DNA of 64,000 bases from assembly GCA_051294905.1 (NCBI GenBank), contig CM119371.1, positions 29,886,001 through 29,950,000 of the forward strand, written 5' to 3'. This document shows, piece after piece, positions 24,593 through 35,103 of this stretch; position 1 is the first letter of the stretch, and each line of letters starts with the position of its first letter. Under the pieces are notes generated by a model, which was given only the letters and a program-made list of their open reading frames with translations, made no database searches and was not told the DNA's origin. Position numbers and translations under genes: made by a program. Source of the stretch: Botryllus schlosseri (taxonomy: Eukaryota).

Positions 24593-25350
24593 TATATCAT
24601 GGTGATATTTCAGGAAAATACAGTTTTTCCGGTTTAGCACTCTACAGTTAATGTGTGCACAAGACTGATGACGGTTGCATGATAATTGAGCTAAATTTGA
24701 CTTTACCTTGAGTCCATAAGCGCGAAGTTACAGCGTTATGCTGGTGCCCGACGTTCATCTTGATCTCCCCACGTCATACCATAAACACTCCTTGTAAGTG
24801 CACTTGGTGACATTTCACATCGCTTCATTTTCAACGGGTTCTCGTAACACGTGTAGCAAAACAAATCTAGGTCATTGCGACACTGTCTGTCTAGCTACAT
24901 CACTCATTTTTTAACATACGTAAATCAATGATGGAAAAAAATTCTCGGTAATAGCATTCTCGGTAATGTCCATTCTCGGTAATGGTCATTCTCGGTAATA
25001 GTATTCTCGGTAATAGACATTCTCGGTATTAGTAATCTCGGTAATAGCCATTCTCGGTATTAGTATTCTCGGTAATAGACATTCTCGGTATTAGTAATCT
25101 CGGTAATAGCCATTCTCGGTAATAGCCATTCTCGGTAATAGTATTCTCGGTATTGTCCATTCTCGGTGATGTCCATTCTCGGTATTGTCCATTCTCGGTA
25201 ATGTCCATTCTCGGTATTGTCCATTCTCGGTAATGTCCATTCTCGGTATTGTCCATTCTCGGTAATGTCCATTCTCGGTATTGTCCTTCTCGGTAATAGC
25301 ATTCTCGGTAATGGCATTCTCGGTATTGTCCGGATACGAATGTGAAGCAC

Positions 25351-28300
25351 GGTGTCCGGACAATACCGAGAAAACCATTACCGAGAATGCCATTACCGAG
25401 AATTGACACCACCGAGAACGGACATTACCGAGAATGGACACCACAGAGAATGGACGCTACCGAGAATGGACACCACAGAGAATGACCATTACCGAGAATT
25501 GACACCACCGAGAATGGACATTACCGAGAATTGACACCACCGAGAATGGACATTACCGAGAATTGACACCACAGAGAATGGACATTACCGAGAATTGACA
25601 CCACAGAGAATGGACATTACCGAGAATTGACACCACAGAGAATGGACATTACCGAGAATTGACACCACAGAGAATGAACATTACCGAGAATTGACACCAC
25701 CGAGAATGGACATTACCGAGAATTGACACCACAGAGAATGGACATTACCGAGAATTGACACAACAGAGAATGGACATTACCGAGAATTGACACAACGGAG
25801 AATGGACATTACCGAGAATTGACACAACAGAGAATGGACATTACCGAGAATGGACACTACCGGGAATGAACATTACCGAGAATTGACACCGCCGAGAATG
25901 GTCATTACCGAGAATTGACACCACAGAGAATGGACATTACCGAGAATATTGACAATACCGGGAATGGACATTACCGAGAATGGACATTACCGAGAATGGG
26001 CGTTACCGAGGATGAACGCCACCGAGAATGGACACTACAGAGAATGGACATTACCGAGAATATTGACACCACAGAGAATGGACATTACCGAGAATGGACA
26101 CCACCGAGAATGGTCATTACCGAGAATATGGACAATAGCGAGAATGGACATTACAGAGAATGGACACCACCGAGAATGGCCATTACCGAGAATGTATATT
26201 TCCGAATATGAAGAATGTCGTGAAATCTAAACCAGAAAATACCTAATATCAGGACGTTGGGATCAATGTTATTTATAGTTGTTACGCGCTGTTGTCCAAG
26301 GGACCGCGCAGTGAGTTGGGGAGTGCGCGCAGCCTCGTGAAAAATTAGAGAGTGATGCACATACGATTTGTGTTTGTTCAATGTGCAATGTGCATAACAT
26401 GCGTGCATTATAGGCATTGTGCACATGAGACAGGACAGAAATGTGGTAATCTAACCCGTTTACTGTAAAATGTCTCGTACTACTTTCTGCCACCGATAAA
26501 GTGATAAGCGTCGCATTGTTTCCTTCTCAACAATTAACAATTAATAATAACAATGTGTTGCTGGAAGGGGAAGGTGCAGAATAGCCTTATAAGGCTTTCT
26601 AAGTCGGGCAAAGTAAACATTATTGAGAGGACATTACTAGTAGCCTAAAGCAAACCGTTTACTGAAAATGACTAAGCTGCATCAACCGAAAATGTAGGCC
26701 ATGATCCGCCTAGATACTTGTTTATCCCCTTTTCGAGATTTGAAAGAATTGATGCCTTCTTGCTTCATACCAATCACAGCAGCTCGATGAGTTCCGCTAG
26801 TATTACAGATATCCGTTCCTTTGAAGAAAACTATTATGTCATAGTTTGCCTTTTCGCTTTCAAGCAGATAAAACGAATTGAGATAGGCCTACGAATCACA
26901 GCAGGTTGATGGGTTATTAGAGGTATCCATGCCAGAGAAGCGACGGAATTCCTTATCGAACCATAGTTTCTTTAGTGGCTCCTAATCATATTATGCTCTT
27001 TTAAGATTAGAATCACAGCAGGTTGTTACAGATTTGTGCGCCAGTGAAGCGAAATTATTCAATGTTATGCCGTAGTTGGAATCATCACCACACCAACGTG
27101 GAGTGTTCGAGACAATCAGCTGATTTAAAACCAACCGTATCGGTAAATCACATGCTTTACGACTAAAAGTCATGACAGGTGTTGGTCAGCTAAGAGAGGT
27201 GGACGACGAAATGGCAGAACAATCAGGACCTAATGTATTAGCAAAATACATTACTTCGACTTGAGGAAATAAGTTAATCGCTGTTGGCGAGTTCGTATTT
27301 AGGAGAATGAAAGTTTCGAATGGTACTTCGCGTACTGGATATGCACGCATTATGACAGAAAAAAATGTCGGTGTTCATTGAAAGTCCTTGAAGGATCATA
27401 GCCACCAATCGTTCTGAAGCAATCTCAAGAACACAATCACTGTGCTACGTTTGGCCTAGTAGAGGCAAAAGAAATGGTTCAAAGGTATGATGTTATTTAA
27501 TTATCGTTTTATGGGAAATGTATTCACGTCTAGCCAGACCAGTGGTTCTCAAACTGCGGTCCGCGAGACAATTTTTCGAGACCGCGAAACACGTTCCAAC
27601 AAATTCACTAATAATTTTGAGTTTCCTGTTTGGTATTCGGCTCGTTCGTGAATCGCGCAATACCGTTTGTGAACCGAATGCATAAAGAGTAGTGATCAAC
27701 CGTTTTCGGGGGTTTGGCTAATTATTTCAGGGATACATATATAGGTAGGCTATATTAACAGATGCAATCTTTTTTACTGTTGCGGATTGGATTGGCCACA
27801 TTGAAATTCTTGCTGATCTGGAATATTTTGTATTGCATCATCAGGTTTGAATCAGTGTAAGATAGTATAGCATTTTTGGTGTGTTGAGATGTCTAAAACT
27901 ATGGGGTAGAATCGAAGACTACTCTAACGATGTTCATATTGTTATTATTGTATCTTCACGACCTTGTTGTTCTATCTTAACCACCTAAATCTTTATAATT
28001 ACCACCCGTCAGACTAGATTATGTCTGCGATGCGTTTATATACCAACAAGACTAATCGATTCGCACAAGTCATCAATAGCGGCGCCGAAATTTGTTTGCG
28101 ATTCGCTTTTGCCGCTTTGTGACCAAGTCATTATTCACATATCAGCCTACTGAATTGAATAAAATAATCCATCTAACTCTATATTTTAATATATAACTTA
28201 ACTGGCATATGTTTATGCGTGTAGAGACGTAAACGCGAACTGGCATTTGTACGTACTAACGTACATAGATTTAACCCGATTAATCTACTACAATTTAAAA

Positions 28301-30957
28301 CATTGCCTGATTGCAAAAAAGCACACCTCTCCCCCTTTTGATTCACCCCTGAAGATTGATGACACTTTTGCGAATTGTCCATGAATAACGTCTTTTCATT
28401 ACCACATTATATCAAACATTGATAGTACGGATCTGCTTCGCGAATATATGAAGTATTTAACTCATTATTGTTTCTGCCTTAAGTATCACGAATGATCAAC
28501 AACGCAGTAATAGGCGGCCGCTGTTCCCACCCAGCATTTGGAATGTGCGACAACGTACCATCGGTGACATGCACCGAACCAACAATTCTGTTGAAGGCTG
28601 GCATCACGGCTTCCGCGTTCTAGTTGGGGGATGTCACGTAACCATTTGGAAACTTTTAGAGTGTATCAAGTGAGTATAAACAATGGAAGATGTATATGTG
28701 TACTTGGTTTCAACTTGAATATACATATATTTTTGAAGGAAGGATGTCATACAAAATCGAGTGCAGCTGTTACAAACTTCCACAGGCCAGGCAACGCCTA
28801 AAAGAAAGAAAAAATACGTCGACATTAGCGACAAATTGAAGCGGCTTTGTGATGCAGCGTGGTCAACCGACATGACTACAGATTTTCTGTCAAGAGTGGC
28901 ATACAATCTAAGTGAATAAATAGATAATAGCGATCACCACATATTTAGCATCCTTTCTGACGAAGAAACGCCAAGTCTGTGTTGGTGATCACCGCTGTAC
29001 CACCTATTTATCCTCTGGATGTTTCATTTTAGCATGCCACAGACAAGTAATAAAATGCAAATAACCTGGAACATGATTGCTTATAATTTTGGAGTTTCTG
29101 GGCTTACAGTAAATTTAGAACTTCTCAGTCTCTTATTTTTGCTAGCCGTAGAAGCTTTAAAACAGTAGGAAAGGAGCGACAAGGAAATATAGCGTGACTA
29201 TATGCAAGATAGCGTAATGGTTGGCTGTCAGTTGTCAGGTTGCTGAGTAAAACGGCAGCCTACTGACAAACTATTCTGCGATTGTAACAGGTAGAATTAT
29301 CATCATCGCGAAATGAAATTCGGGTCCAATTAGTACGGTACAGCGACGCAACATATCATTGAATATAGATATGATATATTGCATTACAAAGGTAAGTGCA
29401 TAATTCGTTGATTGTCCGATTGTTGAGCGAAGCCATTACCTAGGAATCACAATCGTCACGTTCATAATCGAATATATTTCTGCGTAGGAATATTACGCAG
29501 TGTACAGTTTGTCTAGGTTTGCTAACTGCTTTAGATGAAAAATGTACCTCGATCAATTGTATACGCAGCGATCAACGAAGTTTCTTTATCTTGTGTTGTT
29601 AAATCCTGATGAACGCGATAATAGACTTTTTAATCAACCCAGCTTTATTATCTACGCCCTACATTAAATTGTGTTTGCGCCCAAAATCACCACAAGACAC
29701 GTTCTCTTACGATAATTCGTGAGCCAGATTTTCGTGACGGTCACTACTGATTGAATACGCACTTTCTCCATAGTAATCATCTGCTACCAATATTAATTCT
29801 TGTCTACTTGATACACTCTATTCCCGAATTATCGCGTCAGCCTAAACATATGAATTATCGCGTCAGCCTAAACATATATGTTGACCAATGTGTAGAATGT
29901 CTAACCGTCTACTGAAAATGAGTAGGCCCATGCCGCAAATGAAAAATGTAGACCATGATTTGCCAGCATATTTGTTACTCCCTTTGCGAGCTCTGTGAGA
30001 GTTGATGCCTTCTCGATTTCAACCATATTACACTCTTTTGAGATATGCATGACAGCTGGATGCTACAGATTTCCGTATCAGTGAAGCGAAGTAGGCTAAT
30101 TCGTATGTCATGGTTGGTACACGAATCGGAAACGTTGTAGACAATCAGCTGATATTGTAAAACCGCTTTAAAACCAACCCTATTGATCGATGATCAGATC
30201 ACATGCTTTAGGAATTAGGACTATAAGTTCACGTGTACAATTTATGCATGCAGTCATGCAGGCATGTCATGCATATGTAGGTACAGATCGCGTGTATGTG
30301 CATCACGGCGTCGCCACATTCGGTATCAATTCTCAGGTATAATTTTCCCGACAACGTTCGTCTCAGTAAGTTAGATTCTCGACATTGGCAATTCTCGGTA
30401 ATGTCCATTCTCGGTAGTGTCCATTCTCGGTAATGTCCGTTCTCGGTATTGTCCATATTCTCGGTAATGACCATTCTCGGTGGTGTCCATTCTCGGTAAT
30501 GTCCATTCTCGGTGGTGTCAATTCTCGGTAATGTCCATTCTCTGTTGTGTCCATTCTCGGTAATGTCCATTCTCTGTTGTGTCAATTCTCGGTAATGTCC
30601 ATTCTCTGTTGTGTCAATTCTCGGTAATGTCCATTCTCTGTGGTGTCAATTCTCGGTAATGTCCATTCTCGGTGGTGTCAATTCTCGGTAATGTCCATTC
30701 TCTGTGGTGTCAATTCTCGGTAATGACCATTCTCGGTGGTGTCAATTCTCGGTAATGTCCGTTCTCGGTGGTGTCAACTCTCGGTAATGTCCATTCTCTG
30801 TGGTGTCAATTCTCGGTTGTGTCCATTCTCTGTGGTGTCAATTCTCGGTAATGTCCATTCTCTGTGGTGTCCATTCTCTGTAATGTCCATTCTCGGTAAT
30901 AGCGTTCTCGGTAATGTCCGTTCTCGGTAATGGTTTTCTCGGTATTGGTATAGAACC
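25351..30957 (+). mobile_element. Mutator-like (MULE) foldback element B with satellite TIRs
   Basis: 9-bp TSD GTGAAGCAC (25342-25350 and 30958-30966); GG...CC ends; ACCGAGAAT satellite arms ~25360-26200 and ~30391-30947 inverted; FLYWCH-like relic at 27211-27440. Confidence 0.85.
27211..27440 (+). pseudogene. FLYWCH-type zinc-finger remnant in foldback B
   Basis: MAEQSGPNVLAKYITST*GNKLIAVGEFVFRRMK/fs/YWICTHYDRKKCRCSLKV...QEHNH; contains stops and a frameshift. Confidence 0.65.
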
Positions 30958-31175
30958 GTGAAGCACGGTCCACAAATACTCTTGATTAGTCACTGCCGTT
31001 AGATACTGCTAGAGATCAAACTTTTCTGCATGAGTGAGTACGTGTCCATGTAACTGGATCGATAAACCAAGCAAAGCAGCGTCAACTCGTCAAGCAGATT
31101 TGAGTCCGGTTCTCAACTAAATTGTACCAGAAAGTTTTAACAATTTGCTTGCGGATTGTCTTGTCAGTTCACATC

Positions 31176-31469
31176 ATGAGTAAGTCAGTAAAAGTCTCCG
31201 TCGAATACTGTGGTAGCTGAGGATACGAAGGACGCTTCAATGATCTGCAGACAAAAGTTCAGGACGAATTCCCCGACGTGGAAGTCGAGGGGGTCGTCGG
31301 CCGTCCGCAATCATACGAAGTGTCCGTCAACGGAAAGCTCATCTTCTCCAAGCTCGAAACGTACGGATTCCCCAATGATAAAGACATCATTGACGCCGTC
31401 GAAAAAGCGTGCAAAGGCGAAGAAGTAGCTCAAATTACGGACAGTGCCAGCCCGTGCAATATTTTATAG
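31176..31469 (+). CDS. MIEN1: Rdx-family selenoprotein, MIEN1/SELENOW2-like, 97 aa, Sec encoded by TGA 31218-31220
   Basis: MSKSVKVSVEYCGSUGYEGRFNDLQTKVQDEFPDVEVEGVVGRPQSYEVSVNGKLIFSKLETYGFPNDKDIIDAVEKACKGEEVAQITDSASPCNIL: V.YCxxUGY, EV.VNG.LIFSKL...GFP and terminal CaaX (CNIL); SECIS downstream. Confidence 0.95.
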
Positions 31470-32170
31470 TTTTCAATATTTCATGGTATAGTTTTCGCTT
31501 CAACGGTGGGTGTAGTTGGTTAACGGAAACACGGATCACGATATCTTTTTGCTGGAACATCTTGATGTAATGTTTTCAATCTGAATCAATGGTTACGTCA
31601 CAACCATACTAATCAAATGCGTGCTTCAATTTTGTATTTCTCTATATGATTGATCATTGAGTACTTGAGTTTTGTAGGAAAGCGAGATTCTATATTGCAC
31701 CGCACACAGACATGTCCCCTTACAAGTGCGTATATATATATATATATTATTAAGGACATTTTACGAACAGCTGTGCCAAAATATAGGCATACTGGAAAGA
31801 TCTACTTGCTTGTTCATTCAGCCACTTGAGACTTAGGCTATGGTTTCGGAACAAAATCAAAGTTTAGGTTTTACTGTAATGGTAACCTTACTCCAAACAG
31901 ATGAAGAGTGTAAAAATCATGATGTTACATGTTGCAAAATTCACTCTTTGCTATTTCCAATGTTTAATCTTGAAATTTACATGACTAACTACTATCGTTA
32001 TAATTATATAGTGATATCCCACATTACACTGTTTCAGTGAAAGCGTTGACTGCATATATTCACATCAAGACTGGTGTGCATAGTTCATTTACGGTGTTTC
32101 ATTTAGTATCTTGCCATTTTGTGGTTGGTTTGCGTGAAAGTTTCATTTGTGCGTTTATACGTCTCTATCT

Positions 32171-32236
32171 ACAATGCATTTAATGACGGCATGATTGCAA
32201 ACCTTTCCCAATCATGCCCGACGAGACATTCATTGT
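32171..32236 (+). promoter_or_regulatory. SECIS element in the selenoprotein 3' UTR
   Basis: ATGAC core (32183), 10-bp perfect helix GGCATGATTG/CAATCATGCC, unpaired AAA 11 nt after the core, 3' CGAC completing the G.A/A.G quartet, lower helix ACAATG/CATTGT. Confidence 0.9.
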
Positions 32237-32261
32237 TGACTGGTAGACGATTGCTTACAAA

Positions 32262-32277
32262 TGTAATTTTTCAACAG
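32262..32277 (+). promoter_or_regulatory. Candidate (trans-)splice acceptor for MRPL37
   Basis: TAATTTTTCAACAG ending 8 nt before the MRPL37 ATG. Confidence 0.55.
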
Positions 32278-32285
32278 GAATTCAT

Positions 32286-33647
32286 ATGGCTAATCGCGGT
32301 TTTCGAGTAGCCAACGCGCTATGTCCGTTTTACGGAGCGTCAATCTCCATAATCCCAATTCGAACAATGAGATACCATGCGTGGGGCGGTATGAAACGCG
32401 GCAAGAACCGGATACCTCTCGACTGGCGTAAAGTGGACCACAATCCCGCCAAGATACCGTGGGCTTGGATACCGGATAAATGGAAACAAGAACACAACAT
32501 CGATTACGAATACGAGAAAGAGCTTGCAAAGTATATTCCAGGTTACGAGCCAAAGATACCAGACGAGGAACACCCTGATTATCACGAAACAGTCAACTAT
32601 TCATTTCACTCTGATACAAAACTAGTGGAAGGATTTCGGCAAGCTTTGTGCCTCACAAAATCCGTGTTGTATGAAGAAATGCCTCAAAATATTCAACAAC
32701 TTGAAAGCATCGATGAGATTCCCGATCAAGATGAAAAAGTGGTTCCGATCTTTCAAAAGGCCAACCTTTTTGACATCGACCCTGTTAATTTAGACTTTGA
32801 AAACAGCAAAGGCAGACGTTATCAAGATAACTTTTTAGTTTACCCCACCGTGCAGCGTATATGCCCCTCTGTGTTAGAAAATTTGATTAGACTCTGTTAC
32901 CAGCATCCTCTTTCGTCAAGAGTTATATCCACCAGAATTCTCGCTAAGGATGTGGAGTGCTCCACATACATGCAGAGAAAATGTGATGTTGACCCAGAAA
33001 TGACAAGCCTCATCGATAACAACTGGCTTGTATCGTTCAAATCGCAAGGGGGCATGCATCTTCTATCGAAATGTCCTTTAAAGCCGTTCGCGAATGCCAA
33101 AGAAATAGAAAATACAAAGTCGGTCGCTTTGCCGAATATATTCCCAGTGTTGCCGGTCGTAGATTTAATCAAAAAGAATATCTACAAAAACATAACCTCA
33201 ACTGGTCTTTCAAATGGTGCCACACTGTCTAACTTACACACTCTATTTCTGCTAAACCTGTCCGGATTGACCGCTGAAGAATTGTATGGGCAGATGATAT
33301 GTCAGTTATTTACCTGTCTGCATTCACGTGCTGTCGCCAAATATGGTGCAGAGCCCCTGGACCTCCCAGAACCGATATCCGCTCAAGCGATCGGCAGTGA
33401 TGGACAAAATTTTCATTTTGCATGCATGCAATTGAACACTACCATGATGGACAGTGACCAGGGTGTCAAAAATATGGTGTGGACCAACGCGCCTTACGAG
33501 GACTCGTCACTGGGTCGTAGGTACCTATCCATACCGATGTACGACAAATGCGCGCATAATCATTGGGAAAGTCAGGAGTACTATTCCGGTTATGATCCGT
33601 CTGTTTTTCGAACCTTTTTAGCTATGTGGCTCAACGGAACTGTGTAG
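32286..33647 (+). CDS. MRPL37: Mitochondrial large-subunit ribosomal protein mL37, 453 aa, intronless
   Basis: Longest ORF in window; Arg-rich, acid-free N-terminus; motifs QALCLTKS, LPEPISAQAIGSDGQNFHFACMQLNT, GVKNMVW and FRTFLAMWLNG recognisable as mL37. Confidence 0.92.
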   Translation: MANRGFRVANALCPFYGASISIIPIRTMRYHAWGGMKRGKNRIPLDWRKVDHNPAKIPWAWIPDKWKQEHNIDYEYEKELAKYIPGYEPKIPDEEHPDYHETVNYSFHSDTKLVEGFRQALCLTKSVLYEEMPQNIQQLESIDEIPDQDEKVVPIFQKANLFDIDPVNLDFENSKGRRYQDNFLVYPTVQRICPSVLENLIRLCYQHPLSSRVISTRILAKDVECSTYMQRKCDVDPEMTSLIDNNWLVSFKSQGGMHLLSKCPLKPFANAKEIENTKSVALPNIFPVLPVVDLIKKNIYKNITSTGLSNGATLSNLHTLFLLNLSGLTAEELYGQMICQLFTCLHSRAVAKYGAEPLDLPEPISAQAIGSDGQNFHFACMQLNTTMMDSDQGVKNMVWTNAPYEDSSLGRRYLSIPMYDKCAHNHWESQEYYSGYDPSVFRTFLAMWLNGTV

Positions 33648-33742
33648 TCGTCTGCTCAAACACAGTAAAATAACATTGAATACCAAGTTGCAAGTCTCTT
33701 TTGGCTTTGAATTTAAGAAGTTTCAGTGTATGCCTAGTAGAC

Positions 33743-35103
33743 CAGAGGTTCTTAAACTTGAGATACCAGAATGTTTGCAATCCCAACCAGGGTTGTAATG
33801 ACTCGAGTCGCGATTTTCTTATGACTCGACTCGAGTCAATCTGTGTATTGACTCGGACCAAGTCATATGACTCGAGTTTCAGACAGCCATGTCTGACATT
33901 TCGTTATATATAATTTCGAAGATTAGTAAAGTAACCACACTGTTGGTATTTCGCCTATTGGTACTGGTTCTTGAAAATATGACCAGAAACTGCTAAAGGT
34001 GAGGTGAGGATAATTAGTATATTTTAAATGCAAACCATTGGATATCACCAGACAGAGTTATAAAAAGTGCTTTTAACAAGACCGTGCAGTCAACGCAATG
34101 ACTTGGACTCGAGTGAGAATACCATGACTCGGACTCAGTGGTGAATTGAAAATGACTCGACTTGTGACTTGGTTAGTGGTTAAAACGCATTGTTTGTTGG
34201 CATGGAAGGTGTTATGGCTGCTGAGAGACTCTTCAAGTATGGCATTCGGATTATACACAGAGCAATAATTATGAGCAGGGGTTAAATCGTGTGGAGCATT
34301 GTAAATTTTGTTGAAACATAATCATGCGCAATGGCAACACGTAGCACATGGATATTTTAGTGGTTTGGGTTCCTAATACCTTCTATTACAGTTCGGTAAG
34401 GTTAAACGTACCTGACCATAAGCTAAATCAACAACCAATGGTACAACTACACACATTCACCAGTTACTCTTCATCTGATTAGTGCATGGTTCGGTACCCG
34501 TCGAAATTTAGCATCAGTATGTGGATGGTATCACGCAATTTTGACGCTTGAAATCAAAATATAATTAAGATTATTGCCATTGTTGAAACTTGGGAGTGTC
34601 AGCACAAATTAAAGTTATTCCTAGTTTTCGCGCCAGGGTTTTAATGACTGTAGTGGTGATATTTTGGTAACTCAACTTGACTCAGTTATTTTTTCAAATG
34701 CATTAAATGACTGGCCTCGAGGATTGACTTGAGTCATATGACTCGGGACTAGGCTGGCCGAGACCGACATTTCATTGTAACTTGGAAGAATAATAAACTC
34801 TATCAGGAAAATAGGGCCAGAAACTGTTGAAGGCCGAGGAAATTACTATATTATGATTGCGGGCAATCTATATAACTCAAACAGAGTTGAAAAAATGTAT
34901 CGAATTGAGCTGAACAGTGAACAAAATGACTTGGACTCTACCCTACTAGCAGACTTGGACTCGGTGGTGAATTGAGAATGACTCGAGTCAAAACTATATA
35001 AGTGAGATTATCTTGACTTGGTTACAACCCCGCTTCGTGACTCCCCTCTCCCCTCAGACGCTTTCGTGCCCTCATGGGGTCGGTGCCAGTTTGAGAACCA
35101 CTG
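33743..35103. mobile_element. hAT-type MITE enclosing a GACTCGAGTC-rich element (~33788-35031)
   Basis: Outer TIRs CAGAGGTTCTTAAACT / AGTTTGAGAACCACTG with flanks TAGTAGAC / TACTGGAC; inner ends CAGGGTTGTAATGACTCG / GACTTGGTTACAACCC. Confidence 0.7.

Follow-up and report, generated by a model that had tools for sequence, protein, structure and literature searches.

Two closely spaced genes lie on the plus strand of the 64-kb stretch of Botryllus schlosseri DNA analysed here (the window): an intronless gene for a small Rdx-family protein with an in-frame TGA codon and, directly downstream, the gene for the mitochondrial ribosomal protein mL37. Their features, in order of position, are:

31069..31175, plus strand: 5' UTR of the Rdx gene (X1 contig start at 31069; read starts piled at 31090)
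31176..31469, plus strand: intronless coding sequence of a 97-aa SELENOW2/MIEN1-type Rdx protein (reading frame, Pfam, PDB and reads)
31209..31220, plus strand: C-G-S-U redox motif, made up of the Cys12 codon to the TGA, the putative selenocysteine Sec15 (frame and alignment of relatives)
31455..31466, plus strand: C-terminal CNIL, a predicted geranylgeranylation (CaaL) box (frame and relatives; PMC6738349)
32172..32235, plus strand: SECIS element, type I-like (fold, Rfam, our own pattern and chance tests)
32249..32284, plus strand: interval with the mRNA 3' end (X1 contig end at 32249; X22 depth 0 at 32284)
32267..32277, plus strand: T-rich tract and AG, a candidate trans-splice acceptor for mL37 and candidate poly(A) site for the SELENOW2 gene (sequence; PMC1488885)
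32286..33647 (also given as 32247-33647), plus strand: intronless mL37 (MRPL37) gene, mitochondrial ribosomal protein of 453 aa (Pfam, relatives and reads)

With the TGA read as selenocysteine (Sec), translation gives a 97-aa frame running from ATG 31176-31178 through TGA 31218-31220 to TAG 31467-31469. This confirms a sequence-only reading of the locus, which had extended a 63-aa open reading frame upstream through TGA 31218 to ATG 31176. Codon 15 is the in-frame TGA and Cys12 is encoded by TGT 31209-31211; the protein starts MSKSVKVSVEYCGSUGY and ends SPCNIL, so the CNIL terminus given in that reading (codons 31455-31466) is also borne out by the frame. The 63-aa open reading frame begins at an in-frame GTG at 31278 (codon 35). 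ATG 31176 is the sole ATG from 31069 to the coding start; the frame has no other ATG, and no joint at the AG immediately before ATG 31176 appeared among the read tables listed.

The protein belongs, by sequence comparison, to the Rdx family and to its SELENOW2/MIEN1 group. Residues 6-76 match positions 1-73 of the 74-position Pfam Rdx profile (PF10262; E 1.6e-18, 67 bits against a cut-off of 22.6), while 11 other long frames of the 64-kb window gave no Pfam match. Against PDB sequences, residues 4-97 match human MIEN1 (2ljk, E 5.9e-25), which has Cys opposite U15; the match to mouse SelW (2npb) is weaker (E 1.3e-6). In a profile search, those of the best 120 of 506 matches that carry names are called MIEN1 or selenoprotein W2a, including a 'MIEN1-like' protein of Styela clava (53% identity) and fish selenoprotein W2a/MIEN1 proteins (~50%). 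The relative P0001 is 70% identical, has equal length and keeps the CNIL end; the Styela clava protein likewise terminates in CNIL, although the N-terminus of its database entry is substituted. A 48-row tree groups the window protein with P0001, Styela clava, the metagenomic locus L001 and unnamed rows at a support of 94/84, just below the starred level; its backbone does not resolve the split between SELENOW2 and MIEN1. The sequence-only reading had offered both names: the family holds, as the two PDB matches show, but SELENOW2 is the more apt name for the window gene, because MIEN1 has been proposed to originate in jawed vertebrates (PMC13134290).

Reads of four runs (of 24) were placed on 30900-33900. 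No run that contains this stretch is recorded as RNA; one of the four, X1, was taken to be RNA by guess, and expression is judged from the raw reads of the same-label runs X24 and X22 together with an X1 contig. This contig runs from 31069 to 32249, differing from the window by 3 letters and 6 gaps; 5' UTR, TGA and SECIS all lie in it without a splice. In X24, raw RNA reads are present in 30 of 30 bins, with no splice joint in the gene among the rows listed. Single-cell 3' reads of X22 pile up at 31910-32313, with a peak at 32112-32212, and their depth falls from 198 at 32208 to 107 at 32235 and 0 at 32284; extrapolation of this depth puts the 3' end between 32257 (flat) and ~32278 (linear). 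Given the X1 contig, the X24 coverage and the X22 3' pile, the UGA and the SECIS share a single unspliced transcript whose 3' end lies shortly after the SECIS. This settles two of the checks proposed earlier; the transcript does not end before 32171, and the TGA is not spliced out in the X1 contig or at any joint listed at 31218-31220.

Among the 40 of 222 differences between reads and window that were listed, 23 lie in the 3' UTR (including one in the SECIS) and one in the coding sequence. The SECIS difference, C32208A, falls in the apical loop and leaves the predicted fold the same. The coding difference, at 31223, is silent, occurs in 8/71 X24 reads and apparently comes from a paralogue. 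Over 31194-31238 only, a second X1 contig and reads of X24 and X21 (organism B, 460 reads) also match the window and then diverge into other Rdx-like sequence, which suggests that this species has a paralogue and organism B a relative. We excluded these partial matches as support because the codon at the Sec position could not be read in them.

The hairpin in the 3' UTR lies 714 nt from the stop codon, in agreement with the SECIS-shaped hairpin noted earlier at ~700 nt. Helix I has 5 pairs (32172-32176 with 32231-32235), the core consists of AUGAC (32183-32187) and CGAC (32219-32222), and all 10 pairs of helix II are standard (32188-32197 with 32209-32218), leaving an apical AAA at 32199-32201, 12 nt past the core GA. 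The fold has a z-score of -4.19, and none of 200 shuffles was as stable. We searched both strands of the 64 kb with a SECIS pattern of our own; on the plus strand this hairpin was the sole match at 0-1 mismatches, and among 2000 shuffled 3' UTRs the pattern was matched perfectly by 2 and with one mismatch by 16. The minus strand held matches at 18842-18804 (0 mismatches) and 13904-13861 (1 mismatch), with a 9-pair stem, which may be due to chance. Rfam SECIS_1 picks the same 62 bases with a score of 22.2 bits (E 0.63), under its gathering score of 35. Judged by its anatomy (RUGA/GA core, helix II, and apical AA 11-12 nt above the core), the hairpin is a SECIS element, the weak Rfam score being its one blemish.

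The published consensus for the 3' core strand is KGAW (PMC3753652), from which the CGAC of the window departs, as the sequence-only reading had remarked. We considered this as a reason to doubt the SECIS and rejected it, since a related locus, L002, has the same AUGAC/CGAC core and CGAC is thus no defect. This locus comes from a scan of metagenomes, in which 4 of 22 pattern matches were confirmed as related loci (L001-L004); as L004 is a near copy of L003, three are distinct. All three carry TGA at the Sec codon and a downstream SECIS-like hairpin. L001 has its hairpin 54 nt past the stop and a protein ending in CIIL, L002 has a hydrophobic tail replacing the CaaX box, and L003 (like its near copy) has four exons, three introns and a CTIL end. 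Its hairpin matches Rfam SECIS_1 at 31 bits (E 0.008); no Rfam SECIS match was obtained in L001 or L002 at E up to 10, so the hairpins of these two rest on our own pattern. Counted from the core, helix II is paired at 10 of 10 positions in the window, 8 in L001, 8 in L002 and 9 in L003, and positions 3-5 vary in base pair among the four elements yet stay paired (a MAFFT alignment of the four hairpins did not track structure). In L003 (1048-5146), one of the three introns splits the Cys codon of CxxU; the window gene has none of them.

C12-G-S-TGA15 aligns with the CxxC of MIEN1 and with the TGA in L001-L003, so that TGA or Cys stands at this codon in these relatives, as the earlier reading had asked to be checked. 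At E up to 0.001, HMMER matched 347 proteins among cluster representatives; in the best 150 of these plus P0001 (151 rows), positions 12/15 are C/W in 42 rows, C/C in 31 and another pair in 40, with both positions gapped in 38, and a Cxxx terminus is present in 76. Among the best 120 of the 506 profile matches, the residue at the Sec site is W in 80, C in 1 and G in 1, while 6 begin just past the codon and 32 are without the motif. A genuine Trp form among the relatives was considered and rejected: P0018 shows W where L002, at 94% identity, has TGA, and the W in relatives is thus most likely TGA as read by gene callers. The 38 of 120 that begin past the codon or lack the motif also agree with the earlier statement that gene callers truncate such proteins.

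These W residues are relevant to one rival explanation, in which the UGA is bypassed, be it by splicing, by editing, by decoding as Trp or Cys, or by a restart at GTG 31278 that yields the 63-aa protein. The 80 relatives with W among the best 120 of 506 could suggest a tryptophan reading, codon 35 does offer an in-frame GTG, and GT and AG dinucleotides flank the TGA codon. However, the W appears to be a product of gene calling, as P0018 and L002 indicate, and neither a joint nor a base change occurs at 31218-31220 among the 40 of 222 differences listed. The 63-aa form would lack CxxU as well as the strand and helix with which the Rdx match (Pfam residues 6-76) begins, and under any such bypass the SECIS would serve no purpose. 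We therefore regard bypass as extremely unlikely.

Instead, we read the locus as a SELENOW2/MIEN1-group gene of an ascidian, expressed and made of a single exon, with a predicted geranylgeranylated CxxU oxidoreductase as its product, and we give this reading a probability of about 0.9. The UGA is most likely read as selenocysteine, because the mRNA carries both an in-frame UGA and a SECIS in its 3' UTR. In the known eukaryotic pathway, the UGA is recoded with SBP2 bound to the core of the SECIS (PMC2761289, PMC3753652); here, a SECIS-binding protein and the Sec elongation factor would presumably do the same. Sec-type SPS2 has been reported from styelid and pyurid ascidians, including Botryllus and Halocynthia (PMC4561486).

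Such a gene could also derive from an intron-bearing SELENOW2 gene as a processed (retro)copy or pseudogene, with the UGA a plain stop or the copy idle. The window gene indeed lacks introns where the L003/L004 relative has three, and selenoprotein retrocopies, of SPS2, have been reported in the ascidian lineage (PMC4561486). In addition, the end of a repeat element lies ~100 nt upstream of where the transcript starts. A 16/32-bp satellite unit forms arrays at 24941-26205 and 30389-30944 in a head-to-head, inverted arrangement, with arms (25507-26013 and 30391-30897) that are 94% complementary. Each array ends in a common short motif, the last one stops ~100-125 nt before the transcript start, and together they are probably a mobile repeat element. 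Nevertheless, the gene is transcribed with its own 3' end and its frame is otherwise intact. The listed differences between individuals (40 of 222) cluster in the UTR rather than in the coding sequence or the stems of the SECIS, P0001 keeps both length and CNIL at 70% identity, and the neighbouring mL37 gene is intronless too. A dead copy is thus very unlikely, although an origin by retroposition may be historically true without the gene being dead.

As a selenoprotein of this group, the product would be a thioredoxin-like, membrane-tethered thiol/selenol oxidoreductase, a prediction made by analogy with its relatives. MIEN1 itself has a thioredoxin-like fold and a disulfide of -225 mV (PMC3527542, PMC6738349), and in the window protein Cys12 and Sec15 would cycle via a selenenyl-sulfide. 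At the C-terminus, GGTase-I would modify Cys94 by analogy with Cys112 of human MIEN1. In CNIL, the Cys, the Ile at a2 and the Leu at X fit a CaaL box, and the Asn at a1 lies outside the aliphatic set quoted for this position (PMC6738349).

It is possible, though doubtful, that the protein is a true selenoprotein and yet not prenylated, and/or that its gene stands alone, merely near mL37 and in no operon. On the first point, the non-aliphatic a1 of CNIL would speak against prenylation, as would a sister group in which a hydrophobic tail replaces the CaaX box. This clade unites P0012, P0194, P0201 and L002 at a support of 99/98 (L002 lies in another group of the tree than the window protein), and several of its members end in a predicted membrane-spanning tail. 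Such a tail is predicted to be a second way of anchoring the Rdx domain, and the swap indicates that the anchor can vary in the SelW family. Against this, the X position is Leu, CNIL recurs in relatives by sequence comparison, and a terminal Cxxx is found in 103 of the best 120 of 506 profile matches; a terminal CaaX box is, on this comparison, the family norm. The a1 position of CaaX boxes is permissive. Our preferred reading is that the protein is probably geranylgeranylated at CNIL, as predicted from MIEN1. We found no literature on prenylation of a Sec-containing member of the family, in a search that covered few subscription papers.

Directly downstream, the mL37 gene, which the sequence-only reading had passed over, is closest, among named relatives, to those of Styela clava (47%) and Ciona (38-39%). 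These matches place the window in a stolidobranch-type ascidian, probably a styelid. It has its own pile of X22 3' reads, the second in the region, at 33425-33626, its contig ends at 33687, and its raw-read depth is several-fold under that of the upstream gene. The mL37 ATG (32286) lies on the same strand, 51 nt past the end of the hairpin and 64 nt past the SECIS core, and is preceded by an AG (32276-32277) that is 55 nt past the end of the core and 8 nt before the ATG. Neither AATAAA nor ATTAAA occurs in 31470-33800. Operons of Ciona have a similar architecture, being described as free of intercistronic DNA, with poly(A) added at the G of the acceptor and 16 of 18 without AATAAA (PMC1488885); 60% of them begin with a single-exon gene (PMC2760879). 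We therefore consider it probable, by analogy, that SELENOW2 and mL37 belong to a Ciona-type operon in which the SELENOW2 gene is the cistron nearest the 5' end. Each precursor would either be cut and polyadenylated near AG 32277, giving the SELENOW2 mRNA, or be trans-spliced there, giving the mL37 mRNA.

The alternative of a stand-alone gene draws on the lack of a leader at 32277: neither a spliced leader nor a poly(A) loose end was seen there among the rows listed, at a depth of ~10, and a pair of Botryllus genes that are closely spaced yet have no leader has been reported (PMC3691228). However, less than 40 nt separate the end of the X1 contig from the mL37 ATG, which leaves no room for an mL37 promoter outside the upstream transcript. 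The operon thus stays an inference, since the layout fits and no leader or poly(A) junction occurs among the rows listed. As for the metagenomic loci, mL37 was not found near the gene in any of the four, with only ~2.9 kb downstream covered in L003 and L004.

If the operon is real, the SECIS-bearing end of one mRNA is also the acceptor region of the next, and one precursor probably gives only one mRNA. SECIS-binding proteins on the nascent RNA might tip the choice between polyadenylation and trans-splicing, forming a SECIS-gated operon switch; we regard this as a long shot. If true, the balance between a prenylated selenoprotein and a mitoribosomal protein would be set by selenium status. L002 (287-3800) has a comparable arrangement, in which a TMEM87-like gene, a SelW-family gene with SECIS and an eIF3K-like gene form a compact run on the same strand, with the AG-ATG of the eIF3K-like gene ~40 nt past the SECIS core. 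To judge from its sequence this looks like an operon of another tunicate-like genome, and compact genomes would yield a SECIS ~40 nt before an acceptor and start codon anyway. We found no report of a SECIS at an operon or trans-splicing junction in a literature search covering few subscription papers. The probable mL37 operon is nonetheless a small, testable case of a SECIS beside a trans-splice site.

The locus also bears on annotation and on the history of the family. Gene callers truncate or bend SELENOW2 proteins at the UGA, and the locus therefore needs a Sec-aware gene model. The window gene is an outgroup to the vertebrate SELENOW2/MIEN1 duplication, and its sequence suggests that the cancer-linked MIEN1 descends from a selenoprotein that had a CaaX box and lacked the tyrosine motif. 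The combination of Sec and CaaX is common to the whole family, and fish would be easier for testing it.

Compared with Ciona operons resolved by the spliced leader with zero gap (PMC1488885, PMC2760879), the window shares a same-strand pair with a single-exon first gene, the absence of AATAAA, and an acceptor AG where the upstream mRNA appears to end. It differs in that the upstream 3' UTR ends in a SECIS, and its leader junction and poly(A) base are predicted here.

Human MIEN1 (also C17orf37 or Rdx12) matches the window protein over its full length to a C-terminal PCxIL, and both are acidic with a redox motif at the same place. The CaaL box of MIEN1 is CVIL, reported to be geranylgeranylated (PMC6738349), against CNIL in the window protein. 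MIEN1 differs in having CxxC and a 20-residue N-terminal extension. Its ITAM-like YxxL/YxxI tyrosines are both Phe in the window protein, with positions assigned from the alignment; because of this, the ITAM/Syk-type signalling of MIEN1 probably does not apply here.

The closest likeness is to SELENOW2 itself. SelW2 was reported from fish and frog as a selenoprotein whose Cys form is Rdx12/MIEN1 (PMC3316567), and a 2026 study assigns every invertebrate member to the SELENOW2 branch and has MIEN1 arise in jawed vertebrates (PMC13134290). The SELENOW2 proteins of invertebrates, lampreys, fish and frogs (PMC13134290, PMC3316567) share with the window gene the Rdx fold, an N-terminal CxxU, the UGA with a 3' UTR SECIS, a length of ~95-100 aa and a terminal CaaX. 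The window gene differs from its relatives in being a single exon (the L003 relative has three introns), in its stop-to-SECIS distance of 714 nt (51-127 nt in L001-L003) and in abutting mL37. Among ascidians, Ciona intestinalis has Sec-containing SelW1 and SelW2 genes with SECIS elements, and its SelW1 likewise has the whole open reading frame in one exon but carries two SECIS elements (PMC2874816), where we found one. Six other invertebrates are reported to have one to three SelW genes (PMC3473315). The core of the sequence-only reading, a UGA-recoded SELENOW2, thus stands on frame, family, transcript and relatives, but it is of less note than that reading took it to be, given the published Sec-containing SelW2 and a CaaX box in 103/120. 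With Sec-containing SelW and SelW2 published for Ciona and invertebrates placed in the SELENOW2 branch, the window gene is a further case of a known family: real, but ordinary.
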